The notes under the pieces: generated by a model
What the model was told of the DNA's origin: nothing
Seen by the model: only the letters and a program-made list of their open reading frames with translations
Databases searched by the model: none
In this document: in pieces, positions 1,890 to 58,608 of the stretch
Position numbering within the stretch: position 1 is the first letter of the stretch
Layout: every line of letters starts with the position of its first letter
DNA from: Deltaproteobacteria bacterium
GTDB taxonomy: Bacteria; Desulfobacterota; Desulfobulbia; Desulfobulbales; SURF-16
Length of the DNA: 64,000 bases
Assembly (NCBI GenBank): GCA_029933005.1
Contig: JAOZOY010000002.1
Span: 22,694-86,693 of the forward strand
Reading direction: 5' to 3'
Translations under genes and position numbers: made by a program

Positions 1890-1936
1890 GGGCAGGGAAC
1901 AGGTGAACCGGGATCCAGTTTCAGACTTCAGCCTTT

Positions 1937-2109
1937 GTAAACGTTCACCAGCACCTCACGGAGTCTACGCTTACCTGACCTGCTCGAATAGCACCAGTAT
2001 GCTTCGCTGGCCCAGGTAAGCGAAGACTCCGAAAGAAAGAATCTAAGGCACTGGTAAACGTTTACAAGGAATGTGGTTCCCATAAATTAGTGATCCGGTG
2101 AACGGTTAC
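1937..2109. mobile_element. hairpin MITE copy A1 (GTAA-terminus superfamily)
   Basis: Termini are GTAAACGTTCACC and GGTGAACGGTTAC (12/13 inverted match). A perfect 8-bp direct repeat CAGCCTTT sits at 1929-1936 and 2110-2117. The interior is a long imperfect palindrome with apex AATAGCACCAGTATGCT. It is near-identical to 30569-30725. Confidence 0.75.
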
Positions 2110-2116
2110 CAGCCTT

Positions 2117-2638
2117 TTACCTACAACCTGCCACCTTTTTTTCCATCTCCAGCAGTTTTTTTTTAATTTCAACTCCGCCGCTGAAGCCGCCCAAGCTCTG
2201 ACTCCCAACCACTCTGTGGCAGGGAATGAGAAGAGGTAATGGATTGGCCCGACAGGCCTGACCTACGCCTCTGGCATAACCAATGGAGCCCAGTTGCCGT
2301 GCCAGCTCGCCATAGGTGCGAGTCTCTCCATAGGGGATCCTGCTGATAAGTTTCCAGACCTGTTTTTGAAATCTGGTCCCTTTGTCAAGAAAGGGTGAAT
2401 GGGGGGACGGGGCCAATGATGTTTTTTTGCCTGCAAGATAATCGTTGAATTTCTGGCAGAAACGGGAATTGTTCGGCGTAGTGGAAATGGAGGTAGTCCC
2501 CAGTTTTTCCAGGGCCTTGATATGTCTCTCTTCCTCAAAGGCCAAGTGGATGATCTTGTCTTCGGCTACAATCAAATAGATGGTTGTTCCCATGGAAAGG
2601 CAGGTTCCGGGCCGGATTTTTTTCACTTTGAACATCAC
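2117..2638 (-). CDS. ogt: methylated-DNA--protein-cysteine methyltransferase
   Basis: PCHRVV active-site motif and C-terminal Ada/Ogt-type fold signature (YGELA...GxAxxxNPxxxxIPCHRV). Confidence 0.85.
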   Translation of the reverse strand: MMFKVKKIRPGTCLSMGTTIYLIVAEDKIIHLAFEEERHIKALEKLGTTSISTTPNNSRFCQKFNDYLAGKKTSLAPSPHSPFLDKGTRFQKQVWKLISRIPYGETRTYGELARQLGSIGYARGVGQACRANPLPLLIPCHRVVGSQSLGGFSGGVEIKKKLLEMEKKVAGCR

Positions 2639-2800
2639 TTTTCATCGCCTGGTTATTACGTTATGTTGTTTTTTTTCAGAAAAACAGGAAGATATTGTTA
2701 AAATTTAAAGAAATATCTTGCTTTTTGTCGGCAAATTAATATATCCTTTAACATATTAATATCTCCCTTAAAATTATATAATTAAGCTGCATTCAGAACA

Positions 2801-3898
2801 ATGAGCAAGATGAAGACAAAATATTATTTTTTTCGAATGTTGATCATCTCCTTACTTGCCGCCCTGCTGGCCTTTCCTGCTGGTCTGTGTTTTGCCAAAG
2901 GATGGTCGGCTCCGCTTGATACCTGCCATAAACATTCTTCCGGGAAAAAACAGAAAAAGAACACGGTGTCAATTGTCTCGGGCGGACCATGTCTGGTTCA
3001 ATCCAAGTCCACAAAAAGGAGACCGAAATCTTCTCGTATTGTCTCTTCTTCCGCTTTCACAATTAATAAGAAAATTTCATCACGAAGCGCCATTGTCATG
3101 GATGCTCATACCGGCCGGGTTCTTTATTCTCAGGCCCCTGACCGGCCTGCCCAGCCTGCCAGCACTATCAAGATTTTGACCGGCCTGATTTCAATCCGGG
3201 CATTAAGAGATCAGGAGAAAGTGAAAGTCAGTAAAAAAGCCGCCGGCATGCCGCGATCCAAGATTTATCTTAAGCAGGGTAAATCATATGTCGTCGATGA
3301 TTTGATCAACGCGGTGCTTCTGTCCTCGGCCAATGACGCCAGTGTCGCCTTGGCCGAGAAAATTGCCGGATCAGAAAAAGCTTTTGCCAAAATTATGACT
3401 TACAAGGCAAAAGAACTGGGAGCCAATAGTACGATCTGTAAGACCGCCAGTGGTTTGACTTCACGGGGGCAGCAGTCTACGGTGCGTGATTTGGCCGTGA
3501 TTTTCTGTAAGGCCATGAAGGATGAAGAATTTGCCCGGCGCATCGGCAAAACCAAGGTCAGAACCCGATATGGCAAATTGTTACGAAATCACAACAAGGC
3601 CATGTGGCGGATTAAGGGTGCCGAAGGCGGTAAAACAGGGTATACCCGTGCAGCCCGGCAAACCTATGTAGGACAATTTTCACGCGGTGAAGATGCTATT
3701 GTCGTGGCTATCATGGGAAGTGAAACCATGTGGGATGACATTCATCATCTTGTGAAACACGGTTTTGCCAGAGAACAGCAGATCCGGCTGGCTTCCCTGG
3801 CCTCGGTCTCATCGGGATCAAATTCGAATCACGGCCGGTTCTCTTCGTCTTCTCAGCCGTCAGTACTTGACTCCACCAAGAAAAAAGCCAAATTATAA
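2801..3898 (+). CDS. D-alanyl-D-alanine carboxypeptidase (PBP5/6, peptidase S11 type)
   Basis: Signal/anchor at the N-terminus; SxxK (ASTIK), SxN (SSAND) and KTG (KTGYT) motifs in canonical order. Confidence 0.85.
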   Translation: MSKMKTKYYFFRMLIISLLAALLAFPAGLCFAKGWSAPLDTCHKHSSGKKQKKNTVSIVSGGPCLVQSKSTKRRPKSSRIVSSSAFTINKKISSRSAIVMDAHTGRVLYSQAPDRPAQPASTIKILTGLISIRALRDQEKVKVSKKAAGMPRSKIYLKQGKSYVVDDLINAVLLSSANDASVALAEKIAGSEKAFAKIMTYKAKELGANSTICKTASGLTSRGQQSTVRDLAVIFCKAMKDEEFARRIGKTKVRTRYGKLLRNHNKAMWRIKGAEGGKTGYTRAARQTYVGQFSRGEDAIVVAIMGSETMWDDIHHLVKHGFAREQQIRLASLASVSSGSNSNHGRFSSSSQPSVLDSTKKKAKL

Positions 3899-3909
3899 TC
3901 TGGTCGGGT

Positions 3910-4602
3910 ATGCCCTCCAAAAGCGTGTTGCGGGAAAAACTCGCGGTCGGCGTGGCTGACCGGCTTCCCGAACGTAGTGAGTGGGGTCGGATCGCCGAAA
4001 GGCTGCGCCGAACAGAGGCTTATCGTCAGTCACATTGGGTTTTTGTCGGGCCTGCCGATATTTTAAGTCAGATTCGCATCAATGTTCTCATGGACGGCAA
4101 GGAGTTGATCATGCCGTCTCCCGCCCTCAAGGAGGGGTTCTTCCTCTGCCGTCCAAGTGATATTCCATTTGTAAAACGAAGTTTTGCCGTCAGTTTTAAG
4201 GGGCTGGCTAAATTTGGCGAAAGGCTTAGTCTCGATGGTTTTGTCGGACTTGACATTGGTCTGTTTGTGGTGGATGCATTGGCTTGGGACCAGTTGGGGA
4301 ATCGTCTGGGGGATGGCATGGGTTTTTTTGATTTATCATGGGCTTTGCTGAAAACCCTGGGGGCCGTGTCAGGCCGTGCGTCCGTCTTTGGCGTGGGCGG
4401 GCAGGAACAGTGTGTTAATTTCCTTCCCGTTGATCCCTGGGACGTGAAGATGGACGGGGTGATCACGGAAGACGGGATTGATGTTTTTGCCAATGATCAG
4501 ATTGAAGGCACTCTCTTCTGGGAGCAGCTTTCTGCGAAACGGATCAGAAAGATGTCACTTCTTTGGAAACTTTCTGGCAATATCACTCCTTGTTCTTCCT
4601 GA
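3910..4602 (+). CDS. 5-formyltetrahydrofolate cyclo-ligase family protein
   Basis: N-terminal K..LR pattern, and a C-terminal VVDALAWDQLGNRLGDGMGFFD that matches the family pattern vPgvAFD..G.RlG.G.GyYD. Assigned from motif memory only. Confidence 0.55.
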   Translation: MPSKSVLREKLAVGVADRLPERSEWGRIAERLRRTEAYRQSHWVFVGPADILSQIRINVLMDGKELIMPSPALKEGFFLCRPSDIPFVKRSFAVSFKGLAKFGERLSLDGFVGLDIGLFVVDALAWDQLGNRLGDGMGFFDLSWALLKTLGAVSGRASVFGVGGQEQCVNFLPVDPWDVKMDGVITEDGIDVFANDQIEGTLFWEQLSAKRIRKMSLLWKLSGNITPCSS

Positions 4603-5473
4603 AAACAGGTTCCAGTTCGCACTGTTCGGCGTAACGGCCGATCTCCTCCTGAAATTCCCGCACGTAAGGGCAGTCCCAGACGGCCAGCAGTTTTTTTCTG
4701 GCCACAAAGGCCGGCAGGCTTTTGTCTTCGATATCTCTGTCCAGATTCGGCAGACGCTCAAGAACATAGGAAAAGATCTGCGGCCGTCGGCAGACATCAG
4801 GCCGCTTCGGATAAATCAGGCAACCACCGCTTGTCGGGTCCAGGTTGGGGCAGTGGTTGCGGCGGGGCAGAATCAGACTCCAGCCATGGAGCCAGTGGTA
4901 AAGAGCGGATTGTGTCTGGTAAAATGGACGCTTATTCCGGAGAAGAGGCGGTTCGCTATGGGATGTGGTCAGACGGGTTTCCGGGCTGTCTATTCTGTTC
5001 AGTTTAAAGAGTGATGCCTCTTCCGGCTGGAGCGGGATTTCAAAAAAATCCTGGTTGAGCGTATCATCGGGGCCAATGCAGCACAAGGTGCAGTTGCAGG
5101 GACGGCAGAGTTGACTGTTAATGGTTTCCAGTTCCCGCTTGACCACTTCCTGGGCCACCCAGCTGTCCAGAGCGTCAAGGGGATCCATTGGTTCGAGTTG
5201 TTCATTGAGCAGGATACGGGCCGGAGAACGGGGAGTCTTGATTCGTTCAAAGATCTCCAGAAGATCAAGATAGGGGAGGAGGTGAATTCCCGGTTTTTTA
5301 TAGGAAATTCCTCCTGTTTCCACCGGTTCGGTGAACTCATCCAGCAACGGCGCAAATGTATCAAAAGGCCCGGTGAGATAAAGCATCTGTGCCAGCCTGA
5401 CCAAGGGCAGGATCGGCTTTTTCAGTTGATCAAGCCCTTGTCCGCATTCATCAATCTGTTTTTGAGTCAGCAT
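4583..5473 (-). CDS. YkgJ/UPF0153-type cysteine-cluster (CxxCxxCC) protein
   Basis: CRPCNCTLCC cluster, followed later by GGCLIYPKRPDVCR, as in zinc/iron-chelating YkgJ-family proteins. Its 3' end overlaps the convergent 3910..4602 gene by 20 nt. Confidence 0.5.
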   Translation of the reverse strand: MLTQKQIDECGQGLDQLKKPILPLVRLAQMLYLTGPFDTFAPLLDEFTEPVETGGISYKKPGIHLLPYLDLLEIFERIKTPRSPARILLNEQLEPMDPLDALDSWVAQEVVKRELETINSQLCRPCNCTLCCIGPDDTLNQDFFEIPLQPEEASLFKLNRIDSPETRLTTSHSEPPLLRNKRPFYQTQSALYHWLHGWSLILPRRNHCPNLDPTSGGCLIYPKRPDVCRRPQIFSYVLERLPNLDRDIEDKSLPAFVARKKLLAVWDCPYVREFQEEIGRYAEQCELEPVFRKNKE

Positions 5474-6424: not shown

Positions 6425-6611
6425 ATTGTTCAGGAGTATCCCGTTTCGGCCTTCTTGAATAGCACAAGTGCGGAGTCTCTGCTTTGCTACGCTTACCGTT
6501 CGAAGGCCAGGGAGCGAGGAACGAGACTCCGAATGAATCAATATGGAGCACTCCTGAACTGCCACAGGATTTAATAGTTAGGTAAATTTGGTGGCCCACC
6601 TGAATAGTTAC
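6425..6611. mobile_element. composite hairpin MITE (A5 + C1)
   Basis: 5' end ATTGTTCAGGAGT, 3' end CCTGAATAGTTAC. Flanked by GATTTAAA (6417-6424) and GATTTAAT (6612-6619), a 7/8 match with an ambiguous boundary. Internal stems are ttcaggagt/actcctgaa and cggagtctc/gagactccg. Confidence 0.5.
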
Positions 6612-6718
6612 GATTTAATTTTATTTCAACGGGTGGGAAAAAGAGAGGGCCGCAAGTTAAGAATCAACAATGTTCAACAGTTATATTTTGACTGCTGTGG
6701 AAGCCCTGGAGAAGTCCT

Positions 6719-7156
6719 TCAGGCATACCTGCGGCAGAAACGGGGGGCGGTTTTTCTGTGGGAGCGGTAATTGAGCAGGTTTTTTTTACCTTTATTGAGA
6801 TCTTTCAGCCTGGTGTCAATTTCTTTATGGCGCTCAGATATCTGTTTTGAGAGCTGCCGGTCGATTTCTTTGAGTTCTTTTCTATAAGAAACGAGGAGTC
6901 TGGCTTGGAGGGCCGGATTGTTTTTTTCGTCTTTTGGCTCGTGGCTTACAAAGGTTGTTTCTTTTTTCAGTAATAGCTGCAGGAGGGAGAATGTTTCCTC
7001 TCTGGCCTGGCTGAACGAGATTATTTCTTCGTTTTTCGGGACCCGGGTTTGAACCGTGAGCAGAAAGTCAGCGCTCATTCGTAGTATTTTTTCAAAAAGA
7101 GCAATAACTGTCATTGCCGGATGAGCGTCATTGTTTAGGGAATCTGTTTCAGGCAT
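6719..7156 (-). CDS. hypothetical helical protein directly downstream of fliD (possible flagellar chaperone)
   Basis: The start abuts the fliD stop and the C-terminal half is predicted coiled-coil. There is no recognisable motif, so the function is inferred from position only. Confidence 0.4.
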   Translation of the reverse strand: MPETDSLNNDAHPAMTVIALFEKILRMSADFLLTVQTRVPKNEEIISFSQAREETFSLLQLLLKKETTFVSHEPKDEKNNPALQARLLVSYRKELKEIDRQLSKQISERHKEIDTRLKDLNKGKKNLLNYRSHRKTAPRFCRRYA

Positions 7157-8528: not shown

Positions 8529-8568
8529 GATGCTTTCTCCCCTGTTTGGTGAAAGATGAAGGAAAAAT

Positions 8569-8677
8569 GTAACTATTCAGCTGCACTTCATCTACGCATG
8601 AGCAGGCAGTCTTAATATAGCACCAGTATGCTGCGCCAGTCTGCTTGCACGTATTTAAAGCACATCTGAATAGTTAG
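8569..8677. mobile_element. hairpin MITE copy A4 in the fliD-fliC spacer
   Basis: Termini are GTAACTATTCAG and CTGAATAGTTAG. A perfect 8-bp direct repeat GGAAAAAT sits at 8561-8568 and 8678-8685. Apex is ATATAGCACCAGTATGCTGCG. Confidence 0.75.
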
Positions 8678-8726
8678 GGAAAAATTAAACGTCCTCCCCT
8701 GGCGAGAAGGGCGTTTGGTTTTATTG

Positions 8727-13137: not shown

Positions 13138-13154
13138 GTTTTTTTCACGAGCTA

Positions 13155-13297
13155 GTGTCTGTCCAGAAATAGGTCATTTTGTTCGAGATCAAGGAACAGT
13201 GAAAATTAAAAAGCGCAGCATATTAGTGATATGTGAGCATTTTTCATTTTTGCTGTGACGCAGAGATCGGGCAAAAGGGCCATTTATGGACAGACAC
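13155..13297. mobile_element. hairpin MITE-like element B1 (diverged termini)
   Basis: Termini are GTGTCTGTCCAG and ATGGACAGACAC. Flanks are ACGAGCTA and ACGAGTTA (7/8, boundary ambiguous). Long imperfect palindrome with apex CATATTAGTGATATGTGAGC, related to the B2/B3 copies. Confidence 0.5.
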
Positions 13298-13335
13298 GAG
13301 TTAACAGAAGTCACTCAGGGTAGTTGGGTATTGTC

Positions 13336-17122: not shown

Positions 17123-17194
17123 CTATTCTGCAAGACAACCAGGCCTGGAAGATCCAGGCATTTATATGAAAGTCTTTCGCGGAGGCATTGAGTT

Positions 17195-17237
17195 TACAGA
17201 GTTTTTCTTTCTTCGTCTCTGCGCCTTGTGAGAGATT
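17195..17237. repeat. short hairpin repeat, family D copy 1
   Basis: ACAGAG-ttttt..-CGTCTCTGCGCCTTGTGAGAGATT. Related to 43005-43043 and 59535-59594. Confidence 0.4.
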
Positions 17238-18296: not shown

Positions 18297-18325
18297 GATT
18301 CTCTGTAATGGAGCTATAGAAGACA

Positions 18326-41329: not shown

Positions 41330-41362
41330 AATTTTTTGATCTTTAATAACAGGTTGTGAACC

Positions 41363-42307: not shown

Positions 42308-42333
42308 TTGAGGATTGTGGAGTGAGAAGCGAG

Positions 42334-42984: not shown

Positions 42985-43004
42985 CTGTTGAATCAGCCAT
43001 GAAG

Positions 43005-43043
43005 TCACAGAGGAGCGGAGTTTTTTCTACGTCTCTGTGAGCA
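43005..43043. repeat. short hairpin repeat, family D copy 2 (sdhC-sdhA spacer)
   Basis: CACAGAGGAGCG-gagttttttcta-CGTCTCTGTGAG. Confidence 0.4.
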
Positions 43044-43060
43044 CAAAAGAGATAACATCA

Positions 43061-44974: not shown

Positions 44975-45004
44975 GAAGACAGAAGTCAGGAGATAGAAGA
45001 TATC

Positions 45005-47489: not shown

Positions 47490-47599
47490 GAGAGACCTCT
47501 GGTGTTAGATTAGAACCCATGACAAAAAGGCGAATGTCCAGGGATCGAGCGTAAAGAGCTGACAGTCAACGTCATGACCAGACCCGGCAGAATGGGTCA

Positions 47600-49582
47600 T
47601 CAGTGAGTTGTCATACTGGGGGCGTCCAGAATTTTGCGAATAAGCAAGGCCATATTTTGCAGGCTAAGTGGTTTCATGGCAAATTCGCGGATTCCGATTT
47701 CCCGGGCACTTTTTTCGTCGATTTTTTCGCTGAAACCCGTACAGAGAATAATCGGAAGATCGCATCGGATTGCCAGGAGTTCACGAGCAAAGTCCGCACC
47801 GTTCATCTCAGGCATTGTCTGGTCGGTAATAACCAGATCAAAACGTTCCGGCTGACTGCGAAAAATTTCCAGGGCTTGAACAGACTTTTGACTGGTGACC
47901 ACCTGATAACCGAGACAGACCAGTGTTTTTTCCCCAATCGCGACCAGCTCGGGTTCATCATCAACAAAGAGGATCGTTTCATCTCCCTTTGGCAGGGACA
48001 GGGTTTCATTTTTTATCTTCGTCTGCAATTGATCTTCATCATTAATGGCAGGAAAATAAAGTTCAAAAGTCGCCCCCTGACCTGGTTTGCTTTGCATCGT
48101 AATGGTGCCATGATGACTTTTAACAATGCCATGGACCACTGCGAGCCCCATGCCTGTGCCTTTGCCAACATCCTTGGTGGTAAAAAAAGGTTCAAAAATT
48201 CGTTTTGCCACATCCTGCTCCATTCCCTTTCCGGTGTCACTGACTGTAAGTTTCAGGTGCGGGCCGGTTTTTAGTTCCGGCAGCCGGGAAACATCATCGG
48301 AATTAATGGTCACTTCGGCAACACTGATTTCAATACGGCCGGTCTCGTCCCGCAGGGCGTGGAAGGCGTTGGTACAGAGATTCATGAGAATCTGATGGAT
48401 CTGGACCGGATCGGCCATGATTTTTCTGGAAATGGCGGGTAAGTTTTGACGAATTTCGATGGAAGTCGGCAGCGAGGCCCGCAGCATTTTCAGGGCCTCT
48501 TTAATTACAGGAAGGATGTTGACAGGCTGTTTTTGCAAATCGGTTTGACGGCTGAAAGCCAGGATCTGGGCCACCAGGTCAGTGGCCCGTTTGGAGCCTT
48601 GACGAATTCCTTTGAGGTATTCTTTCATTTCAGCATCGGTGGGCTGAACGAGCAGCGCAAGATCCGTGTAGCCGGTAATAGCGCTTAAAATGTTGTTGAA
48701 ATCATGGGCAATACCGCCGGCCAGGGTGCCGATGGCCTCCATTTTCTGGGCCTGGAGAAGTTGGGCCTCCATTGTGCTTCGATCGGCCTCTGCCTGTTTT
48801 CTGACATTGATTTCTTTTTCCAGCTGAGTGTTGGTTTCAAGGAGCTGGGAAGTTCGTTCTTCCACTTTTGTTTCCAGCTTATCCTTGGCCGTCCGGACTT
48901 TTTTCTGTTCCTCTTTCAGCATATGGCCCAGGAAAAAGTTTTTTCGGGTATAAAGTTCAATGGCATAGCAGCTGGCCATACCGATCATATTGGCGCTGAT
49001 AAAGAAAAAGTTGTTGTTGACAAGCACGGGCAGGGGCGTATTCGTGAGTTTGATTGCCGCTATTTCGTACAGGACGACAATAAGCCAGCCGGCCAGGGTT
49101 GCCCAGACAAAGCGGATTTTGATTAGTGTATAGCCCGTCATAAAGACCAGGATCAAGCCGGCATAATATGAAAAACTCGCTGGAGGCGGCGCAATGATAA
49201 TCATGGCGATGATGCCGGTGCCGGCCAGAATCACCCAGAGAACAAGGGCAGGCTGCATTATTTTTTTAAAATAGGATGAATATGTGAAGAAGAAAAACAG
49301 GATGGTAAGGGGACAGCAGAAGGCGTAACGGATCAACCATAATGTTGTCTTGCTTTCCGGCACAAGATGGGCGTCAAGGATGCCGAAAACAGCAAAAAGG
49401 ATCAAGACAAGAAAGCAGGAGACGCGGATGACCGGCAGACCGTTTGTAAAAAAATGATCCTGAAATTGTTCTTCGAGAACGTGCTGGTCGTCCCGGAAGG
49501 CAAGGGTGAGGGGATGGAGCTTTATTCTGGCCCACACTTGTGAAGATGTCTGGATATTGAGGTTACTGTCAGGTTTAATCAT
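47600..49582 (-). CDS. hybrid sensor histidine kinase (6-TM sensor, HisKA, HATPase, C-terminal receiver)
   Basis: H-box IAHDFNNIL, N/G boxes (MNLCTNAFHAL, SDTGKGM, GTGMGLA), and a receiver domain (ILFVDDE...VITDQTMPEMNG). Confidence 0.85.
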   Translation of the reverse strand: MIKPDSNLNIQTSSQVWARIKLHPLTLAFRDDQHVLEEQFQDHFFTNGLPVIRVSCFLVLILFAVFGILDAHLVPESKTTLWLIRYAFCCPLTILFFFFTYSSYFKKIMQPALVLWVILAGTGIIAMIIIAPPPASFSYYAGLILVFMTGYTLIKIRFVWATLAGWLIVVLYEIAAIKLTNTPLPVLVNNNFFFISANMIGMASCYAIELYTRKNFFLGHMLKEEQKKVRTAKDKLETKVEERTSQLLETNTQLEKEINVRKQAEADRSTMEAQLLQAQKMEAIGTLAGGIAHDFNNILSAITGYTDLALLVQPTDAEMKEYLKGIRQGSKRATDLVAQILAFSRQTDLQKQPVNILPVIKEALKMLRASLPTSIEIRQNLPAISRKIMADPVQIHQILMNLCTNAFHALRDETGRIEISVAEVTINSDDVSRLPELKTGPHLKLTVSDTGKGMEQDVAKRIFEPFFTTKDVGKGTGMGLAVVHGIVKSHHGTITMQSKPGQGATFELYFPAINDEDQLQTKIKNETLSLPKGDETILFVDDEPELVAIGEKTLVCLGYQVVTSQKSVQALEIFRSQPERFDLVITDQTMPEMNGADFARELLAIRCDLPIILCTGFSEKIDEKSAREIGIREFAMKPLSLQNMALLIRKILDAPSMTTH

Positions 49583-49620
49583 TGTCCGTGAATATCTTTT
49601 CCGGGTCAGCGATCAGAAAA

Positions 49621-49692
49621 GCGGCACCTGTGAACGCTTACAGAATAAGGAGTTACTCGAAAGCTTGGTGATTTCACCCCGTGATTGGTTAC
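49621..49692. mobile_element. 5'-truncated MITE fragment (3' arm only)
   Basis: GGCACCTGTGAACGCTTAC followed by ...ATTTCACCCCGTGATTGGTTAC. This parallels the 3' part of A1 (GGCACTGGTAAACGTTTAC...GGTGAACGGTTAC). Confidence 0.4.
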
Positions 49693-49800
49693 GTAATCGC
49701 TGACAGAGCAATGGGCTGCTCAGGTTTGTCCTATTTTATTCTGCAACAGGTTCTCTTTCCGGAAGGGCGAAAATGAAACTATTTTCACGAAATTGAGCTG

Positions 49801-50682
49801 CTATTTTCCGAAAATTCCGCGTAGAGCATCCATGCCCTTCTGCATAGCATCCTGCATGTCCTGACCTTCTGTGCCCTCGGCAGGCCTCGTGCTTCCCCCG
49901 GACTTTGTCCCGGAGCTCATGGAAGATGGAGGCATTGTGCTGTGTTGACCGATACTGGCTTGCGCTTTGTCCGGGTCAAGAAGCATTTCAATGGTCTGTT
50001 TTGCTATGGTGCGGGCCATCTGGTCAGCCTCTGGGTCATGTTCCAGCTTGATGCCGGCCGGCGGGATGAAAACATTTTTCGGCGCAGAATTCTTATCGAT
50101 TCTGGTGGCTATGGACTGGAAATTCATGCCCGCCACACTGGTTTCTGATTTCAGCGGCAGCCCGGTTTTGTTTATCATGTAAATTGTCGAACCCATGAAA
50201 GAAATTTTATCACAGGAATAACCGAGAATTTTTGTCGCGTTTTTTTCAATTTCACCTTGGGTGCCGTTGATGGCGGACTGGCCAAGTTTTTCGGAATTTT
50301 TAATAAGTTTTTTTCGGTCACTCCTGGAAAGACTGTTGTACTCCTCAATCATATACTTGGTCGGGTTGACGGATTTTTTACCGGTTTTTTCCTGCATGTC
50401 GATGGTATAGATCCACTCCGGTGTAACAATTCGAATGGTCTCGGTTTTTGTTGTCATGAAAAATATTTTTGTGGTCGTGTTTCGGTATGTGGCCTGTTCC
50501 TTGCCATAGTTGCGGATGTAGAGCGTTTCGCTGCCGTTTTCCGAGCCGGTTATCGAATAATTGATAGTAGCATTTTTGAAAGGGAGCCTGGTGTCCCAAG
50601 GGTTTTCCCCGGCCAGAACCGGAGCCGTAATCAGAAGGTTCAGAATCAGAATACGCAGCAGGAAAGAAAAAGATTGTGCCAT
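49801..50682 (-). CDS. exported hypothetical protein
   Basis: N-terminal signal sequence (LLRILILNLLITAPVLAG). No motif recognised. Ser/Gly/Met-rich C-terminal tail. Confidence 0.6.
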   Translation of the reverse strand: MAQSFSFLLRILILNLLITAPVLAGENPWDTRLPFKNATINYSITGSENGSETLYIRNYGKEQATYRNTTTKIFFMTTKTETIRIVTPEWIYTIDMQEKTGKKSVNPTKYMIEEYNSLSRSDRKKLIKNSEKLGQSAINGTQGEIEKNATKILGYSCDKISFMGSTIYMINKTGLPLKSETSVAGMNFQSIATRIDKNSAPKNVFIPPAGIKLEHDPEADQMARTIAKQTIEMLLDPDKAQASIGQHSTMPPSSMSSGTKSGGSTRPAEGTEGQDMQDAMQKGMDALRGIFGK

Positions 50683-50826
50683 GACAGTTGTACTCCTTGT
50701 CGTTGGGAAATTTGGTGGAATTTTATTATTAAGTACTTAAAAAATCATATACAAATTGATCTTTTTTTTCCATTGTTATTTTCTTCTGTGTCTCAGGGTT
50801 GAAAAAACAATTTTTACCAGTTCATC

Positions 50827-51010
50827 GTAATTGTTCAGATGGGACCACCAAATTGGTCAAATTACAATTCCGTAACTGTTCAGGGCGATAGGCTCCAGGC
50901 TGGACGGCAGGAGAAATGAGATTGTACACTGGAGTGATGTAACGAGAAACGCCGCAGATTTCGAAAATTAATAACTTTTGGCCGACAGCCTGAGCAATCT
51001 GAATAGTTTC
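50827..51010. mobile_element. two adjacent MITE units (C3 + A6)
   Basis: GTAATTGTTCAG at 50827 and GTAACTGTTCAG at 50872, with CTGAATAGTTTC ending at 51010. An internal imperfect palindrome is present (ggctccaggctggacggc / gccgacagcctgagc). No clean flanking duplication. Ends 6 nt from the EamA gene stop. Confidence 0.5.
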
Positions 51011-51016
51011 GAGGTG

Positions 51017-51883
51017 TTAACCGAAAAGAGCGATAAGCATGGCGCCGCAAAACATGAGCAGCGCTCCCAGGCCCCGGGATCTGATGTTGGTTTCTTTCAA
51101 AATGAACGAGCTCAGGATAATGGAAAAGAGAATGCTGCTTCTTTTAACCGTGATCATGTATACAGCAGTGGTGAGCATGATCGCCAGACCGTGGCAAGCC
51201 ACATGGGTTGTCAGCAGGCTGCCTAAGAGTAAACCTTTTCTGCTGTTTTTGATGATTGATGACCAGTTTGTCTGTTTGAAAATAAAGAGGCCGAATAACA
51301 GAGTAATGTTGAAAATCAGAAAGAAGAAAAAAGTGAAAAAAAGTGGTGAGGAATGAATCATGCTTTTTTTGCCCACTACGGCGGCAAAAGAGAAAATGAA
51401 AGCCACACCGAGCATGAGAAGGGAGCCTTTTTCCCGCAGGATGGATTTGAAGGGTTCCAGAAGGCCTTTTTTTAAACTGGAAAAGTTCAGCAGATAAGTG
51501 CCGCCGACAATGAGCCCGACACCGGTTATTCCCCATGAGTTTACGGTTTCATCAAGGATAAAGGAACCGGTGAGCAGAATGAAAAGCGGAGTAAAGGCCA
51601 GAAAGGGAACGGTCAGGGACAGAGGTGAGAGTTTGAGGCTGTAGAGATAAAGAATATATGCCAGCCAGTTGATGGGCAGAGAGAGAAAAAAGGACCACCA
51701 GAAGGTCTGATCCAGAACAGGAATGTTGATAAAAAGACAACCGATAATCAGAAAGGGCAGGGACCAGAACAGCTCAAGAGCTGCGATTTTCTGGATTCTC
51801 AGATCACGGCAGAAAATTTTTACGGATGTATCCCGGACAGCGACACATAAAGCGGTGAGCAGAGAGAGAAAAAACCAGGTCAT
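51017..51883 (-). CDS. EamA/DMT-family transporter
   Basis: Ten hydrophobic helices in two similar halves, 288 aa. Confidence 0.8.
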   Translation of the reverse strand: MTWFFLSLLTALCVAVRDTSVKIFCRDLRIQKIAALELFWSLPFLIIGCLFINIPVLDQTFWWSFFLSLPINWLAYILYLYSLKLSPLSLTVPFLAFTPLFILLTGSFILDETVNSWGITGVGLIVGGTYLLNFSSLKKGLLEPFKSILREKGSLLMLGVAFIFSFAAVVGKKSMIHSSPLFFTFFFFLIFNITLLFGLFIFKQTNWSSIIKNSRKGLLLGSLLTTHVACHGLAIMLTTAVYMITVKRSSILFSIILSSFILKETNIRSRGLGALLMFCGAMLIALFG

Positions 51884-51903
51884 TGCAGGATAGGTTCCAT
51901 ATT

Positions 51904-54900
51904 TTACCGTTCCCTTAACAATTGCAACAACTCCTTGCTGTTGATCTGTCCACCTACATCTATATTGTTGAGCAGGCTGTCGGCCAGAGTTCTTTTTTCC
52001 CGGTGCAGATTAACGATTTTTTCTTCAATGGAGTTTTTTGTGACCAGGCGGTAGATGGTTACCGGTCGTATCTGGCCAATGCGGTGAGCTCGATCCGATG
52101 CTTGATCCTCCACGGCTGGATTCCACCAGGGATCCATGTGGATCACGTAATCGGCTGCAGTCAGGTTGAGACCCAGGCCACCGGCCTTGAGGCTGATCAG
52201 AAAAAGGTCGCCCGTCCCTGTCTGAAACCCGTTGATCTGCTGTCTCCTTTCCCTGGCCGTGGTGGAACCATCCAGGTAGCAGTAACTGATTTTTTTATTA
52301 TCAAGAAGTTCCCTTAAAATGGTCAGGTGACCGACAAATTGACTGAAAACCAAGACTTTGTGCCGATTTTCCAGAAGTTCATCAATCACCTTGCTGAAAA
52401 GATTCAGCTTGGAACTTGGGATGTCGCAGTCTTTGGCTACCAGCCTGGGGTGGCAGCAGGCCCGGCGCAGTCTCATGAGTTCCGCCAGAATACGCATATG
52501 TTTCTGGCCGGCAGGAACTGTGTGTGTTTCGATTTTCTCGACGGCCTCCCGCCTGAGAGCCTCGTAGAAGGCTGTTTCCTCGGGACTCATCTCAACCCGT
52601 AGGGTAATTTCCGTTTTCGGCGGCAATTCTTCAAGAACCTGGGATTTTAGACGACGCAGAATGAACGGGCTGATCAGTTTTTTGAGTTTGCGCTGAGCCG
52701 TCCTGTCCTGGTAGCGCTCGATGGGCAGGCGGTATTTTTTATTAAATCGCTCAAGGCTGCCAAGGAGGCCGGGGTTGATGAAGTTGAACAGGTTCCATAA
52801 TTCTCCGAGATGATTTTCGATAGGGGTGCCGGTGGTGATCAGTTTAAATTCCCCCTGCAGCGACATGGCTGCCTTGCTTCGTTTTGTCGCCATGTTTTTG
52901 ATGGCCTGGGCTTCATCAAGGATAATCACCTGCCAGTGGACAGCGGTCAGCAGTTTGATTTCCTGCTGCAATAAACCATAACTGATAATGACTACATCGA
53001 AGGGCTGCAGGGAGGTGACCTGCTCGGAGCGGTTTTTCCCGCCAAAAAGATTGACATTCAAGGTCGGGCTGAAACGGTTCATCTCAGCCTGCCAGTTCAG
53101 GCAGACCGACATAGGCGCCACCACCAGGGAGGGCCCCAGACCCGCCCTGTCCAGTATGACGGCCAGTCCCTGGATTGTTTTTCCTAGACCCATGTCATCG
53201 GCCAGGCAGGCCCCGGCTCCCCAGTGGGCAAGGCGGGCCAGCCATTGATATCCTTCAACCTGGTAATCGCGGAGCTGGGCCTGCAGGGTTGATGGGATGC
53301 TAGGCAGGAATTCCCGTACCTCGTGCACCCGCTTGAGCATGTCAATCCATTGTTGATCCGTGTCAAGATGAAAGGGTTTTTCGTTGATATTTTCAAGAGC
53401 GGCCGCGGCCAGTGGGTGAAGACGAATTTTATTGCCCCGATCTTCTCCAAAAAAGTTGATTTCTTCAAGCTGTTTGCGGAAGTTCCGGGAAAGGACGATA
53501 TACTGGCCATCTTCCAGTGGGACAAATTTGCTGGAACTGTTACGGACAAGGGACAAAAGGCGTCGCATATTCAAGACCTTATCATCGTCAAGATGAAGCT
53601 TTCCCTGGAGCTCAAACCAGTTATTTTTTTTGCGGATTTGCAAATGGCAATGTTCAAAAGAGACCTGTTGTTTCAGCTTCAGTTTTTCTCCTTCCGGCCA
53701 TTCAACCGTGATTTCTCCCTTGATTTCCCGGAGCTCCTGCAACAACTGCAAACATTCCTCAACTTTTTGAATTTCCCATTCCCAGTCCGAGTTTTCCAGA
53801 TTGGTCAGGATGGAACATTTTGATTCTATTTTTCGGCAATTCTGAATTTCAAGCTCAAGATTTCTCTTGGCCTGCAATCGTTGACCGTCAATTTCGGCAA
53901 TGATATTTTCGCTGCCTCTGCCCGGATTCAGGTAGGGGCCGCCGTCGGCAAATGGTTTGATCAGCATGGTCAGCCTGAATCCCGTCCCCACTGGCAGGAG
54001 ATGAATGATAATTCTGGAATTCGCCGTAACTTTTTTAACATTTTTTGCAACATCGCCAATAGCTGAATGGATAGTTATGCAGGTTGACAGATTGCCAAGG
54101 GACTGCATGACCTGTTCTTTGGCCGCCAGCGGAACAAGCAGGCCCTCTTCACCCATGATAGACGCAATTCTCCGGTGCTCTTTCGAGATTTCAATGATTC
54201 GGAAACGGTTTGGGGTTTCACGAATTGCCATGACTTTGTCAGCAAAAATGTCGGGAAAAATCTCAAGATGAAGTTGATTGTTTTCTTGTCTGACTCTGAG
54301 TTCTGGTTCTCCCTTGATGAGTTCAACCGGAACTGTCGGCACGTCGGCGAGAAAGAGGTGCGGATGGCCGATCAGGGCCGGCAGGGCCTCAGTCATATTG
54401 AAATCATAGGAGATGGAATGAAATGAGCGGGTTTTTTTGAGCGATCGGCAGACTTTCTGATCCTGAGCAGTTAGAAAATCCAGTTTTTGGCCGCTGTTGA
54501 GACGCTGCAGGGCAACAGGTCTTCCTTTGCTCCAAAATCCTTTTGCGTTTAATTTCTGTTCTTTCGGAGTGATGGTGACAAAGCCGTGTTCATAGTGGAT
54601 CATCCAGGCCAGTCGTGATTGGGATACCTGATCTTTTTGTGGAGGCGCGATCAGCGCGTTTAATGCCTTCAGGGCGCGTTGCCACTTTTCTTCCTGTTTG
54701 AGCGTCGGAAAGATGGAAATGATGTTGTTTTGACGTCTGAAATCCTCTGCGAATTTGCGAAAAGAATCATCCCTCCCAGATTGGTGGAGCAGTTCTGCAT
54801 ATTCCATGGCCAGGAGGGAATAGCCGTTCCGGTGGGCCTTTTGAAAACAGGAAGAAAGTATTTCCTGTTGTTCTGCCGTCAGATGGCCATTGATCCAGAA

Positions 54901-56010
54901 ATAGGCCAGTCCCTGGATCAGGACGGTCAGGCTGTCTTCAGGCTTATCCTGCTGGCAGGAAAAATAATGCGGGTCAGCAAGAGATTCCTGGTGGGAGACA
55001 ACGTCCGCCAGCACTGTGTAGGCAGGCAGAAACAGGTTGTGGGGCTGGATAGCGGCTATGTTTGTGACAAGGGATTTGATTTTTGGGTAAAGGGTATAAT
55101 CTCCGGCTTTGATCATTGCCAGAATAAAAAACAGTCCTTCCGGACCGGTAAAAAAAATATGCCGTTGCCCCTGAATTTTTTTTAGTTTTTTGAGATCGTC
55201 TTTAAAATGAAGAATGGCTTTGTCGTTTTTGCCTTGGAGAAAAGCCAGCCAGCCCAATAGTCCGAAACCTTCCATCCCGTCGCCGGCCCGGCGTAGTAAT
55301 TCAACAGCCAGGGTTGTTTCTCCCCGCCACAGGAGGTTTGAAATGAGCAGATAATAAAACGAGCTGATGCCTTCCGCAGGGATCTCTCCCTTTCTTTCTT
55401 TGTCACGTAGGAAATTCAGGGGGCCGTCACAGGGTACCAGCCGCAGGAGGGAATAATTTAAGATTTCATGGAGTCCGTGGAGTTGCAGATGATCAGGCAG
55501 GGTGGCAAACCATCTTCCGTCAAAGGGATTATTCAGGATGGAGACCAGCGGTGAGGATTCCTCCGAAACATCCGGACATTGATAATATTTGGATAAACTG
55601 TTGTTGAAGAGGTCGAAATTCGCTGTGTAAAGGCCGATACGAACATCACGGAGATAACGGATGGATGTGTTCTCGGCAGGCATCTCCTGGCGGACAATTT
55701 TGGCAAGATGATTATAAAGTCCTTCCGTAACAGCCTGCTGGCTGAGGATTTCGACTATGGAGTCGTTACACTGAAATTTCCAGTTGAGCAGGAAATTGTT
55801 CTGGAGATGTCGAATGGATTCAGAGAGGCTCCTGTCTGGTGGCTCGTCGGTTTTGATCAGAGCAGGATCCGATTTGTCCAGACAATGATTAATTACACTT
55901 ATCTTTATCGGTTCATAGATGATCGAGATCATATAGAGGATAATTTTCTCATGACGCGGCAGGCTGTTAAAGGCTGCAGGAAGTTTGTCGGCGGCGTAGT
56001 TGTTGTTCAT
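51904..56010 (-). CDS. SNF2/Rad54-family helicase with a ~900-aa N-terminal region of unknown function
   Basis: The C-terminal ~470 aa carries the SNF2 motifs: LADDMGLGKT (I), DEAQAIKN (II), TGTPIEN (III), a helicase C domain, and WWNPAVEDQASDRAHRIGQ (VI). Confidence 0.85.
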   Translation of the reverse strand: MNNNYAADKLPAAFNSLPRHEKIILYMISIIYEPIKISVINHCLDKSDPALIKTDEPPDRSLSESIRHLQNNFLLNWKFQCNDSIVEILSQQAVTEGLYNHLAKIVRQEMPAENTSIRYLRDVRIGLYTANFDLFNNSLSKYYQCPDVSEESSPLVSILNNPFDGRWFATLPDHLQLHGLHEILNYSLLRLVPCDGPLNFLRDKERKGEIPAEGISSFYYLLISNLLWRGETTLAVELLRRAGDGMEGFGLLGWLAFLQGKNDKAILHFKDDLKKLKKIQGQRHIFFTGPEGLFFILAMIKAGDYTLYPKIKSLVTNIAAIQPHNLFLPAYTVLADVVSHQESLADPHYFSCQQDKPEDSLTVLIQGLAYFWINGHLTAEQQEILSSCFQKAHRNGYSLLAMEYAELLHQSGRDDSFRKFAEDFRRQNNIISIFPTLKQEEKWQRALKALNALIAPPQKDQVSQSRLAWMIHYEHGFVTITPKEQKLNAKGFWSKGRPVALQRLNSGQKLDFLTAQDQKVCRSLKKTRSFHSISYDFNMTEALPALIGHPHLFLADVPTVPVELIKGEPELRVRQENNQLHLEIFPDIFADKVMAIRETPNRFRIIEISKEHRRIASIMGEEGLLVPLAAKEQVMQSLGNLSTCITIHSAIGDVAKNVKKVTANSRIIIHLLPVGTGFRLTMLIKPFADGGPYLNPGRGSENIIAEIDGQRLQAKRNLELEIQNCRKIESKCSILTNLENSDWEWEIQKVEECLQLLQELREIKGEITVEWPEGEKLKLKQQVSFEHCHLQIRKKNNWFELQGKLHLDDDKVLNMRRLLSLVRNSSSKFVPLEDGQYIVLSRNFRKQLEEINFFGEDRGNKIRLHPLAAAALENINEKPFHLDTDQQWIDMLKRVHEVREFLPSIPSTLQAQLRDYQVEGYQWLARLAHWGAGACLADDMGLGKTIQGLAVILDRAGLGPSLVVAPMSVCLNWQAEMNRFSPTLNVNLFGGKNRSEQVTSLQPFDVVIISYGLLQQEIKLLTAVHWQVIILDEAQAIKNMATKRSKAAMSLQGEFKLITTGTPIENHLGELWNLFNFINPGLLGSLERFNKKYRLPIERYQDRTAQRKLKKLISPFILRRLKSQVLEELPPKTEITLRVEMSPEETAFYEALRREAVEKIETHTVPAGQKHMRILAELMRLRRACCHPRLVAKDCDIPSSKLNLFSKVIDELLENRHKVLVFSQFVGHLTILRELLDNKKISYCYLDGSTTARERRQQINGFQTGTGDLFLISLKAGGLGLNLTAADYVIHMDPWWNPAVEDQASDRAHRIGQIRPVTIYRLVTKNSIEEKIVNLHREKRTLADSLLNNIDVGGQINSKELLQLLRER

Positions 56011-56214
56011 TTGGGATGTTGTGATAATAGGAACTTTGCGCTCTCTGAGTCTCTACGTTGAGAAAACAGTTTTTATGAGGTCATCAAGATGAGGTACTTT
56101 GTTTTTCTGTCGATGTTGTCATTTTATCAGTATACCATATAATAGATGAACCATATAGATGAACTGTTTGACTCTATTGTAAAAAAGCAAAGAAAACAAC
56201 AGTGGGGTGATTGA

Positions 56215-56970
56215 ATGGAAATAACCTTTCTCGGGGTTGGCGAGGCCTGTGACTGCAGCTATCCAAACACATCGATATTGCTGAAAAGTGATATTGGCCG
56301 GAGTTTTCTTCTCGACTGTGGTTTTACCGTGCCCCATGAGTACTTTCGGTTCTGTACTGATCCGGACGAACTGGATGCTTTGTGGATTTCTCATTTTCAT
56401 GGAGATCATTTTTTTGGGGTTCCACTGCTGCTTCTCAGGTTTTGGGAGATGGGCAGAATTAAACCTTTGCAGATTATCGGTCAATTTTGCGTTGAAAATA
56501 AAATTCAGGCGGTCATGGATCTGGCCTATCCGAATTTTGGCAAAAAATTGCAGTACGATCTTGAATTTGTGAACATCGATTTTGGAGAATCTTTAGTGGT
56601 TTCGGATCTCGGGCTGAGAACTGCCGAAATCTCTCATTCCCAACCCTGTCTGGCCCTGAGACTTGATGAGGGTGAAAAGAGTTTGTTCTACAGTGGTGAC
56701 GGCCGGCCTACGGCGGCAACTCTGGAGCTGGCGCATGGTTGTAACCTTGTTATCCATGAGGCTTTCAAGTTGTCGGATGAGGTGCCCGGCCATGGTAGTG
56801 TGCGTGGCTGTCTTGATTTCTGTCGCAGGGCCCATGCGTATCGGCTTGCTCTGGTTCATCTGAATCGTCAGGTCAGGCGGGAGGAGATAGATCAAATACG
56901 GGTCATGATTGACACTGCTTCCGGCTTGGATGCTTTTCTGCCGGAACCTGGAGATGTTGTTAAACTTTGA
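56215..56970 (+). CDS. MBL-fold metallo-hydrolase (RNase Z/ElaC-like)
   Basis: HFHGDH metal motif, and further His/Asp (DGRP, HEA, VHLN) at the expected spacing. Confidence 0.8.
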   Translation: MEITFLGVGEACDCSYPNTSILLKSDIGRSFLLDCGFTVPHEYFRFCTDPDELDALWISHFHGDHFFGVPLLLLRFWEMGRIKPLQIIGQFCVENKIQAVMDLAYPNFGKKLQYDLEFVNIDFGESLVVSDLGLRTAEISHSQPCLALRLDEGEKSLFYSGDGRPTAATLELAHGCNLVIHEAFKLSDEVPGHGSVRGCLDFCRRAHAYRLALVHLNRQVRREEIDQIRVMIDTASGLDAFLPEPGDVVKL

Positions 56971-57024
56971 TGTTTTATTAAATTTCTAATTGCTTGAATC
57001 TGCAAGAATTTTCCAAAAAGACGA

Positions 57025-57180
57025 GTAAATATTCGGCTAGCACCCCATCTTTGAACGATCAGGCCTACTCGCATATGAATCAATATAGCTCACAGACCTG
57101 ATCGTCCAAATATGGGCCACTATCCAAAATTTACATTTCGGTGGTTTTTGTAATAATTTATTATCAAGCCGAATGTTTAC
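57025..57180. mobile_element. hairpin MITE copy B3 (inverted relative to B2)
   Basis: Termini are GTAAATATTCGGC and GCCGAATGTTTAC. A perfect 8-bp direct repeat AAAGACGA sits at 57017-57024 and 57181-57188. The first 21 nt are identical to the reverse complement of the B2 3' end. Confidence 0.75.
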
Positions 57181-57251
57181 AAAGACGATGGATGAATACT
57201 GATAGTTCAGTATTCTTTTTTTGCCATGAGCCTTCACCACAGACGATCATT

Positions 57252-58310
57252 ATGATAAAAGAAAAAAAAAGAGTGCAGGATGAAAAAATATTTAAAATTA
57301 CCATCTGGATCATTTTTCTGCTGCTCATTATTACTATTTTAAAAAAACTTGCCTTGCTGTTTATCCCTTTCAGTATTTCTCTTCTTCTTTGCTATGCTCT
57401 GGGTATCCCACTTGATCTACTGCGGCGTCTTCGGGTTCCCAGGTTTTTACGGATATTTGTGGTGGTGCTGTTTGTTTTTGTTATTGTTTACCTCTTTGGC
57501 AGGGTTTTGGCATCCAATATTAGAGAATTTCATGGGCAGTTTCCAGTTTTTGAGGAGAAATTCTGGAGCTATGTCAATATTTTACTGTCCCGGTTTGATG
57601 TTACTCCGGCCCAGGTTCGGGAAAGTTATGATGGATTCCTTTCGAATCTTGAGGGGGCGGACTTTAAATCAATGGGCTCCTTTGTTCAGCGTTTGGGCGG
57701 GGAATTTTTTTCTTTTCTGGGGAATGCAATCTGGGTTGCCCTGTTTATGATTTTTATGCTGGCTGAACAGGACGGATTTGACAAACGAGTTGCCCGCGCC
57801 TTTGGAGAGGAATTTTCCGTTTCGATTCTTGAGGCCTTGAGCCGCATCAATAAGGCTGTTCAGGATTATCTGGGCCTCAAGACGCTGATTAGTTTTTTTA
57901 CCGGTATTTTGGTTTTCATTGCCCTTTTCTTGTTTGACGTTCCATTTGCCGTGCTCTGGGGAATGCTGGCCTTTCTCTTAAATTTTATACCGAATATCGG
58001 TTCTATGATTGCGGTCGTGCCACCGGTGCTCATCACTCTGTTTCACTTTGGCTCGCTGTCAAAAACTATTGGAGTTTGTGTGGTACTGCTTGCTATTCAA
58101 GTAGTGGTGGGTAGTTTTGTTGAACCGAAAATAATGGGTAAAGGATTGAACCTGAGTCCGCTGACAGTGCTGTTTGCCCTGCTTTTCTGGGGATGGATGT
58201 GGGGGATCCCTGGCATGCTTTTGTCCGTCCCTTTGACTGCGGCAATCAAAATCGCCTTCGAACAGCTGGAGGCCACCCGGCCTATTGCCCTGATGATGGC
58301 CGGTGACTAG
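57252..58310 (+). CDS. AI-2E family (PerM/YhhT-like) transporter
   Basis: Multi-TM protein with the family's conserved C-terminal block (FIPNIGSMIAVVPP...GWMWGIPGMLLSVPLTA). ATG 57252 is chosen because the longer ORF start lies inside MITE B3. Confidence 0.8.
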   Translation: MIKEKKRVQDEKIFKITIWIIFLLLIITILKKLALLFIPFSISLLLCYALGIPLDLLRRLRVPRFLRIFVVVLFVFVIVYLFGRVLASNIREFHGQFPVFEEKFWSYVNILLSRFDVTPAQVRESYDGFLSNLEGADFKSMGSFVQRLGGEFFSFLGNAIWVALFMIFMLAEQDGFDKRVARAFGEEFSVSILEALSRINKAVQDYLGLKTLISFFTGILVFIALFLFDVPFAVLWGMLAFLLNFIPNIGSMIAVVPPVLITLFHFGSLSKTIGVCVVLLAIQVVVGSFVEPKIMGKGLNLSPLTVLFALLFWGWMWGIPGMLLSVPLTAAIKIAFEQLEATRPIALMMAGD

Positions 58311-58415
58311 GTTGCGTGTAATTGATTAATTGTAGAGTGGACTAGAGAGCTGTTTACCCATTTCACTCCGTGATTGGTTGCGGTTGCAATAGAAAAAGAA
58401 ATGATTACAATACGG

Positions 58416-58608
58416 GTAAGCGTTCATTAGCACCTCATCTTCGCCCGTTTCGGAGTCTCGTACTCGCCTTACCTGACCTGCTCGCATAGCACCAGTATGC
58501 TGCGTAGGCCCAGGTAAAAGCACCCTTAAAAGCTGGAGGGTATGAGGGTATAAGGAGGGTATAACCTTTGACTTTGAATGAACGACGAAGGCACTGGTAA
58601 ACGCTTAC
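58416..58608. mobile_element. hairpin MITE copy A3
   Basis: Termini are GTAAGCGTTCATT and GGTAAACGCTTAC, with apex CATAGCACCAGTATGCTGCG. The 3' arm carries an extra GAGGGTAT x3 mini-repeat (58534-58563). No flanking duplication found. Confidence 0.55.

Follow-up and report, generated by a model that had tools for sequence, protein, structure and literature searches.

Bacterial hairpin miniature inverted-repeat transposable elements (MITEs) include the Correia/NEMIS elements of Neisseria, the ERIC/IRU elements of enterobacteria, the RUP and BOX elements of Streptococcus and the Nezha elements of cyanobacteria; for ERIC, a strand-biased, RNA-like fold has been discussed. Among insertion sequences (ISs), members of the IS66 family have inverted repeats (IRs) that begin GTAAGCG and yield 8-bp direct repeats (PMC11946415). 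The IR of ISPsy43 is GTAACCGTCCGGGCA (GTAACCGTCC...) and that of ISPsko1 is GTAAGCGTCCGGCG (GTAAGCGTCC...) (PMC12888890), and ISDge4 of Deinococcus geothermalis, from the ISBst12 group, combines the terminal inverted repeats (TIRs) GTGACTACTCAGCA and GTAACTGCTCAGCA with an 8-bp direct repeat (PMC12898284). Here we describe a superfamily of hairpin elements with GTAA...TTAC ends in 64,000 nucleotides of a Deltaproteobacteria bacterium from the Desulfobulbales (assembly GCA_029933005.1, contig JAOZOY010000002.1, positions 22,694 to 86,693), referred to below as the window, whose own coordinates are used throughout. An initial annotation, made from the sequence alone, had reported a dense family of such elements and assigned it to IS66; the observation is confirmed and the interpretation supported. 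The elements are MITEs, and they form a real, very active superfamily that very probably derives from IS66.

Like Correia, ERIC, RUP, BOX and Nezha elements, the GTAA family consists of small, non-coding, mostly intergenic repeats in many copies, with long hairpins and modular or mosaic variants; it differs from them in its termini and its target-site duplication (TSD), which in Correia elements is TA. We know of no counterpart among those families to its three-end architecture, its hairpin tip shared with MITEs of unrelated ends, or its 17-40-nt cassettes. The likeness to the ISBst12 group, represented by ISDge4, lies in ends of the form GTAAC/GTGAC...CTCA, in the 8-bp duplication found in both, and in a 1.9-kb autonomous relative with a single open reading frame (ORF), L128, which has GTAACTTCTCAA ends and an 8-bp TSD. 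The elements of the window differ from that group in being only 36-264 nt long and non-coding, and the autonomous clade found here often carries a DruA/DUF4338 ORF1 instead of being single-ORF or of the tnpA/tnpB/tnpC type. Classic IS66 elements (ISPsko1, ISPsy43 and the E. coli IS66-like element in locus L115) share IRs beginning GTAAGCG or GTAACCG and the 8-bp repeat (PMC11946415, PMC12888890), and the MITE ends GTAAGCGTTCACC and GTAACCGTTCACC agree with theirs in the first 8 nt. They differ in that the window and the other MITE-bearing loci hold no TnpB or TnpC homologue, the partner element lacks tnpA and tnpB, and the transposase of the autonomous clade is very distant from classic TnpC. 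The superfamily is undescribed in the searchable literature, where we found no paper describing MITEs in Desulfobulbaceae, and in Rfam; the kind of element is familiar.

A covariance model, together with BLAST of the window against itself and against copies taken from other genomes, identified 16 copies or fragments of the family in the window, where at least ten intergenic copies had been claimed. Those missed before are 31964-32227, 30569-30725, 27134-27169, 50827 to ~51012, 60786-60948, 49605-49692 and the solo ends at 17119, 30362 and 59621. The 16 copies and fragments add up to 2,116 nt, corresponding to one element per 4 kb and filling 21.5% of the intergenic sequence (9.8 kb), and their TIRs agree at 11-13 of 13-14 positions. 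Ends starting GTAA(G/C)C(G) include GTAAGCGTTCACC, GTAACCGTTCACC, GTAACTATTCAG and GTAACTACTCA. As proposed initially, the terminal motif occurs far more often than chance predicts, with 10 matches to GTAANNNTTCRNC against 0.99 expected, 7 to GTAAYTNTTCAG against 0.07, and 27 to GTAANYRTTYR against 1.44.

Perfect 8-bp TSDs border five window copies. For four of these, both the positions and the 8-mers had been given exactly: 1937-2109 (CAGCCTTT at 1929-1936 and 2110-2117), 8569-8677 (GGAAAAAT at 8561-8568 and 8678-8685), 41270-41329 (AATTTTTT) and 57025-57180 (AAAGACGA). The fifth is 31964-32227 (CATTATTT at 31956-31963 and 32228-32235). Three further copies had been credited with 7/8 repeats. 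That description holds for 30933-31085 (CTGAAGCC/CTAAAGCC); for 6425-6611, one end of which is degraded, it holds (GATTTAAA/GATTTAAT) only with the boundaries originally drawn; and 13155-13297 had to be removed from the family, as its TIR is a different one (CTNGTGTCTGTCCA) and its supposed duplication overlaps the inverted repeat. The copy starting at 58416 had also been ended too early, at 58608, the true end being 58652, where the outer end GTAATCTCTCAGC sits.

TSD statistics were drawn from the window and 113 related MITE-bearing loci. Among 327 TIR pairs, 62 had flanking repeats of 7-8/8 exactly at the borders, compared with at most one pair when the flanks were offset by 3, 8 or 12 nt. 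The duplicated 8-mers are AT-rich, and the repeat stops at 8 bp, with no ninth base. The flanking 8-mers are thus genuine duplications, as first read, and not part of a longer repeat. TIRs, a TSD of fixed length, small non-coding size and insertion polymorphism, the features by which a MITE is recognized, are all present.

The polymorphism was observed by comparison with MAG015 (GCA_034723545.1), a metagenome-assembled genome (MAG) with ~92% nucleotide identity to the window. Two of its contigs are syntenic with window positions 41336-51902 and 52548-64000 (~89-94% identity), and the alignments are interrupted exactly at elements. Four window copies are missing from the orthologous MAG015 sites, in keeping with the empty sites that the initial annotation had expected in relatives: MAG015 has no element at the positions of 41270-41329, 57025-57180 and 60786-60948, and at that of 58416-58652 it has an empty site with a single CAATACGG. 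In the other direction, the window is empty at 61362-61369 (single GAATTTTA) and at 59422-59429 (single GTGAATAG), where MAG015 is filled (L119 8678-8893 and L119 ~6706-7150, respectively). Over the ~23 kb compared, six intact copies are private to one genome, and only two degraded copies are shared (49605-49692, and 50827-50884, which is the 5' part of a degenerate copy). A second orthologous pair is filled in L067 and empty in L028. We also observed nested insertions, in which two elements lie inside other elements with 8-bp TSDs and intact paralogues represent their empty sites. Turnover is fast. Insertions differ between genomes that are only ~8% diverged, which marks the family as a recently active and major force in shaping intergenic regions.

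The further copies predicted beyond the window are abundant. An exact 19-mer from the hairpin tip occurs in more than 113 contig stretches, nearly all from Desulfobulbaceae/Thermodesulfobacteriota MAGs, and at least 11 species-level MAGs of Desulfobulbales carry the family in abundance; a scan of 550 kb of MITE-bearing loci with the covariance model gave 160 matches. MAG contigs very often end within these elements. Occupying about one-fifth of intergenic DNA here, the family breaks MAG assemblies across the Desulfobulbales, an order important in sediment sulfur cycling, and is both a practical nuisance and a strain marker in their metagenomics. A blastn search of PLSDB plasmids with a MITE gave no match, and tblastn of PLSDB with TnpB gave matches saturated by enterobacterial IS66. 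The large plasmid of Desulfotalea psychrophila, covered over its whole 121.6 kb, has no copies of GTAA-family MITEs. All that this plasmid (NC_006139) holds of the IS66 family is a decayed transposase remnant with the end GTAAGCGGTAGC (L117 30213-31000), which lies between galE and galU and shows 31-36% identity to E. coli TnpC.

None of the elements encodes a transposase. We propose that they are non-autonomous MITEs that are very probably mobilized in trans by DDE transposases from a divergent IS66 clade, comprising ISBst12-like single-ORF elements and relatives with a DruA/DUF4338 ORF. One MITE subfamily has the ends GTAACTACTCAYGG and GTAACTGCTCACAGG, almost the same pair as ISDge4. A candidate partner IS was found in MAG015 contig L120 (~1-2231), where it sits inside an ISL3 transposase gene and adjoins a CRISPR array. 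The left end of this IS reads GTAACTTCTCAATAATCCCGTGC, its 303-aa ORF1 matches PF14236 (DruA/DUF4338, 142 bits), and the 530-aa ORF2 that follows matches DDE_Tnp_IS66 (PF03050). A search with this transposase gave 7,976 homologues at E<=1e-20, from which copies of the autonomous IS were recovered in L121-L127 and L131-L133, their transposase scoring 87.6 bits on PF03050; complete copies are 2,581 bp long and have the TIR GTAACTTCTCAATAAYCCC. The first 15 nt of this TIR (GTAACTTCTCAATAA) are identical to those of the MITE at L067 324-425, and the TIR is near-identical to the ends of window element 31964-32227; both MITEs have perfect TSDs. A single-ORF relative of 1,929 bp, L128, encodes a transposase with 67.5% identity and is bordered by a perfect 8-bp TSD, ATATCATC. 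The closest relatives of the MITEs are members of a divergent IS66 clade and not of the classic tnpA/B/C type. The original assignment to IS66 stands in the GTAA ends, the 8-bp TSDs and the existence of an IS66-family element with a 15-nt identical end, and falls in the type of element.

In the proposed model, the transposase would recognize TIRs of 12-20 nt, of the form GTAAC(Y)(R)(Y)TCA..., at the outer left and right ends, and insertion would proceed through an 8-bp staggered cut into AT-rich, mostly intergenic 8-mers. The directly observed part of this scheme is the 8-bp TSD, together with the single 8-mer at empty sites. The derivatives of 109, 60 and 36 nt with intact TSDs suggest that two ends may suffice. 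The family thus offers a large natural set of substrates, including these minimal TSD-bearing derivatives, for the poorly understood IS66 family, and it draws attention to an IS66 clade that is widespread and has a DruA-like accessory ORF. Elements in which a DruA/DUF4338 ORF1 (136-142 bits) replaces TnpA/TnpB occur in L120, L121-L127, L131 and L132, and related single-ORF forms occur in L128 and L133. In L120 (~3640-5290), MAG015 has the CRISPR array (repeat GTTTCAATCCTTGTTGTTTTGGATCATGCCGCTCTGG) where the window has an SNF2 helicase gene, adjoining an EamA gene, and the ISL3 and IS66 insertions are located alongside this array.

Beyond their ends, the elements share an elaborate body plan. 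Twenty-two copies from all subfamilies, including subfamily B of the window, align over the whole ~152 nt in the canonical order outer end, ~30-nt linker, inner end copy, AGTGCC, variable stem, tip, opposite arm, GATGAGGTGCT and right end. The linker holds a conserved AACCACCG, and the tip reads GC.TA.T.GT..TA.GTAAG or TTCAAG. TSDs border the outer and right ends; the short form 8569-8677 uses the inner end instead, and in 41270-41329 the hairpin is missing entirely. The consensus hairpin has 37 pairs, at which 93.2% of cells are paired, compared with 77.6% after shuffling and 47% or less after sliding, and compensatory changes occur at 22 of the 37. Pairing is strand-specific: G-U cells outnumber A-C cells by 135 to 12, a wobble pair is the commonest state in six columns, and the tandem U-G/G-U pairs of AGUGCC/GGUGCU hardly vary across all subfamilies. 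The forward strand folded better in 39 of 46 copies, by a mean of 10 kcal/mol, and the covariance model scored one strand about three times as high as the other.

We consider selection on a single-stranded form during the life cycle of the element, either DNA during transposition or an RNA transcript, the most likely explanation for this one-strand hairpin. It would be less likely to arise as a passive by-product of long TIRs, with gene conversion, palindrome-templated repair and master-copy amplification keeping functionless arms complementary. MITEs commonly carry long TIRs, the ~95% identity within subfamilies is consistent with bursts from master copies, and the combinatorial patterns of the cassettes suggest that copies often recombine with one another. 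However, under a symmetric process at the DNA level G-T and A-C mismatches should be equally frequent, not 135:12, the wobble majority in six columns extends across divergent subfamilies, and the changes that set the inner end apart from the outer and right ends are transitions that leave pairing intact, so that we find the by-product explanation doubtful. Selection on the single strand could also be taken further, with the element being chiefly a vehicle for a functional module that different ends have acquired; the module might be a structured small RNA or a hairpin in DNA that serves a strand-specific step of transposition or replication. The excess and near-invariance of wobble pairs, the strong covariation of the stem with a conserved tip sequence, and a similar tip (GCAGCATATTAGTGATATGTGAG) with the same strand asymmetry in a MITE family with unrelated termini would fit such a module. 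Against it, orientation showed no bias to host genes. Relative to co-directional neighbors, 19 copies were in the same and 19 in the opposite orientation, and 10 copies lay between convergent and 9 between divergent genes. This counts against a role in host transcripts, which we rejected on these numbers, and read-through host transcripts do not explain the strand asymmetry. Inspection of the copy alignment by eye revealed no conserved promoter-like hexamers in the leader. No Rfam family (Rfam 15) matched at gathering thresholds and none overlapped any element even at E<=5, including candidates such as Desulfotalea-1. In addition, the hairpin-less derivatives 41270-41329 and 27134-27169 still show TSDs, indicating that the hairpin is not essential for insertion, and the copies are related by descent, so that independent events are fewer than the counts suggest. 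We therefore regard the vehicle reading as rather unlikely.

Several observations weigh against the transposase assignment. The transposase of the autonomous element scored 150.8 bits on the NCBIfam model transpos_IS66 (NF033517), short of the equivalog cut-off of 180, and BLASTP with it barely detected E. coli TnpC. Against the classic three-gene type in particular, the partner elements have no TnpB_IS66 (PF05717) gene next to the transposase, their accessory ORF being DruA-like or absent, and a TnpB probe (149.5 bits on PF05717) had no match in the window or the MITE-bearing loci. The exact match of ends is restricted to one minor subfamily. In the major subfamilies, the ends (GTAACCGTTCACC, GTAACTATTCAGG, GTAACTACTCA and GTAAATATTCGGC) share only ~9/12 positions with the autonomous TIR, and no IS with matching ends was recovered for these four; the search for an IS66-type element with the same ends, recommended at the outset, thus succeeded for the GTAACTTCTCAATAA subfamily only. 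No parent IS was present in the 113 MITE-bearing loci, as judged by long-range TIR pairs with a TSD, multi-copy ORF families, and tblastn with TnpB, TnpC and the new transposase. Tails at contig ends that do not belong to a MITE were considered as IS left ends and proved to be mosaics of other repeats. A TSD was found in just one of ~10 recovered copies of the autonomous clade (L128, 1.9 kb, 8/8) and was seen in none of the 2.6-kb copies L121-L127 and L131-L133, although the lack of TSDs in most large copies may reflect chimeric short metagenome contigs. The flanks of L127, which comes from a 316-kb contig, agree at only 4/8 positions.

A source outside IS66 also has to be weighed, since MAG015 carries an ISL3 transposase and ISL3 elements likewise produce 8-bp TSDs. 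High-density palindromic intergenic repeats are also typical of other classes, and the elements could in principle be REP/REPIN repeats (RAYT), Correia- or ERIC-like, or derived from ISL3 or another family with 8-bp TSDs (IS6, IS256, IS1595). REP/REPINs, short palindromes with a conserved 5' tetranucleotide, have neither TSDs nor GTAA TIRs, both of which are present here, and Correia elements duplicate TA. In L120, the sequence preceding the ISL3 transposase gene contains no GTAA end, and in the ISfinder family descriptions the ends of ISL3, IS6 and IS256 are not known to begin GTAA. With an IS66-family element that has 15-nt identical ends in hand, we judge another repeat class to be very improbable and retain the divergent IS66 clade as the source of mobility.

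Copies that are otherwise ~95% identical differ by clean cassettes of 17, 23, 25 or 40 nt. These have the form (A)GGTAAGCG-X-AGACTCCG (GGTAAGCG...GACTCCG), are 17-40 nt long overall, and occupy three or four fixed positions in the stem in all combinations, without a TSD. An A precedes the cassette in 187 of 194 cases, and tandem arrays reach 4-5 units. In the window, two 17-nt cassettes lie in copy 1937-2109 (1959-1975 and 2015-2031), one of 27 nt in 6425-6611 (6471-6497), a 17-nt unit in 30569-30725 (30591-30607) and a 23-nt cassette in 58416-58652 (58451-58473). Loci beyond the window include L078 3640-3894, L065 ~4270-4380 and L104. Cassettes also occur in two other palindromic repeat families, one of which includes the window element 13152-13300, bringing the number of MITE families that carry them to three. 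We put forward, with little confidence, two readings: that the hairpin is a functional single-stranded module captured by several end types, and that the cassettes may be a new ultra-small insertion unit. Through the one-strand hairpin and the cassettes that lack TSDs, a single-strand step or a new way of inserting DNA could come to light; together with the shared tip, these are the parts that could prove to be new biology.

The element removed from the GTAA family, 13152-13300 (plus strand), is a hairpin MITE of a second family, and its TIR CTNGTGTCTGTCCA is related to the family TIR GGAGGYTGTCCGAGAAT. Further members are found at L012 2667-2837, L077 3063-3191 and L096 1305-1615. They have flank repeats of only ~2 bp and no 8-bp TSD, and they insert into GTAA-family elements. 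Despite its unrelated termini, this family, as seen at 13152-13300, shares with the GTAA family both the motif at the hairpin tip and the asymmetry of folding between strands. Two more palindromic families were noted, one with the TIR GGGCTCACTCAAAAAT and a TAA flank repeat and the other with the TIR CGTCATTCCGGCATGT; their loci are L120 7511-7715, L003 ~900-960, L013 ~7100, L025, L038, L083 and L132 ~1990. These genomes thus contain at least four MITE-like families.

Full-length GTAA-family copies in the window are 1937-2109, 30569-30725, 30933-31085, 57025-57180, 58416-58652 and, in degraded form, 60786-60948. Copy 1937-2109 (minus strand, 173 nt, covariance-model score 82.9 bits) has an outer end, linker, inner end and hairpin, and 30569-30725 (minus strand, 157 nt, 85.1 bits), which has no clean TSD, is 84% identical to it, the difference being a 17-nt cassette. 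Subfamily B is represented by 30933-31085 (plus strand, 153 nt, 114.7 bits) and 57025-57180 (minus strand, 156 nt, 122.8 bits). The largest elements are 31964-32227 (264 nt, no strand), of the GTAACTKTTCAATAA subfamily, with ends matching the TIR of the autonomous IS66-family element, and 58416-58652 (minus strand, 237 nt), with the TSD CAATACGG/CATTACAG. Copy 6425-6611 (minus strand, 187 nt) has its outer end GTAACTATTCAGG at 6611, opposite the degraded end, and the degraded copy 60786-60948 is on the plus strand (34.9 bits). Degenerate copies lie at 49605-49692 (minus strand), which is old and includes a solo end at 49629-49642, and at 50827 to ~51012 (plus strand), where an outer end, linker and inner end precede a diverged interior.

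Shorter forms include 8569-8677 (minus strand, 109 nt, 73.8 bits), which consists of the inner end, hairpin and right end without a leader and lies between fliC on one side and fliD on the other, and the 60-nt deletion derivative 41270-41329 (plus strand), made up of the outer end, linker and right end. A 36-nt remnant at 27134-27169 (no strand) consists of two facing ends (GTAACCGTTCATC...GGTGAACGCTTAC) with 7/8 flanks (CTGCCGGG/CTGTCGGG). The remaining fragments, all on the plus strand, are a solo outer end at 17119-17171 (GTAACTATTCTGC...), a solo outer end with linker at 30362-30420 (GTAACTGTTCAGGTAGG...) and an outer-end remnant at 59621-59655 (ATAACCGTTCACCGGGG...).

The window encodes ATP sulfurylase and flagellar genes, and its proteins are at least 90% identical to those of Desulfobulbaceae/Thermodesulfobacteriota MAGs. 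The 49 window ORFs scanned contain no recognizable transposase domain, and tblastn of the window with IS66 TnpB, IS66 TnpC and the newly found transposase gave no match, which agrees with the original statement that the window holds no transposase gene. Two stretches are poor in ORFs, with none of at least 100 aa: 17123-18325 (1.2 kb) and 30342-32228 (1.9 kb), the latter containing three MITE copies and a solo end. In MAG015, ~13 tandem heptamers (GCCATGA/CCATGAG) occur before or at the start of an AI-2E transporter gene (L119 ~4670-4745), where they form a possible slipped-strand switch; the window has a single copy of the heptamer at ~57222-57236.

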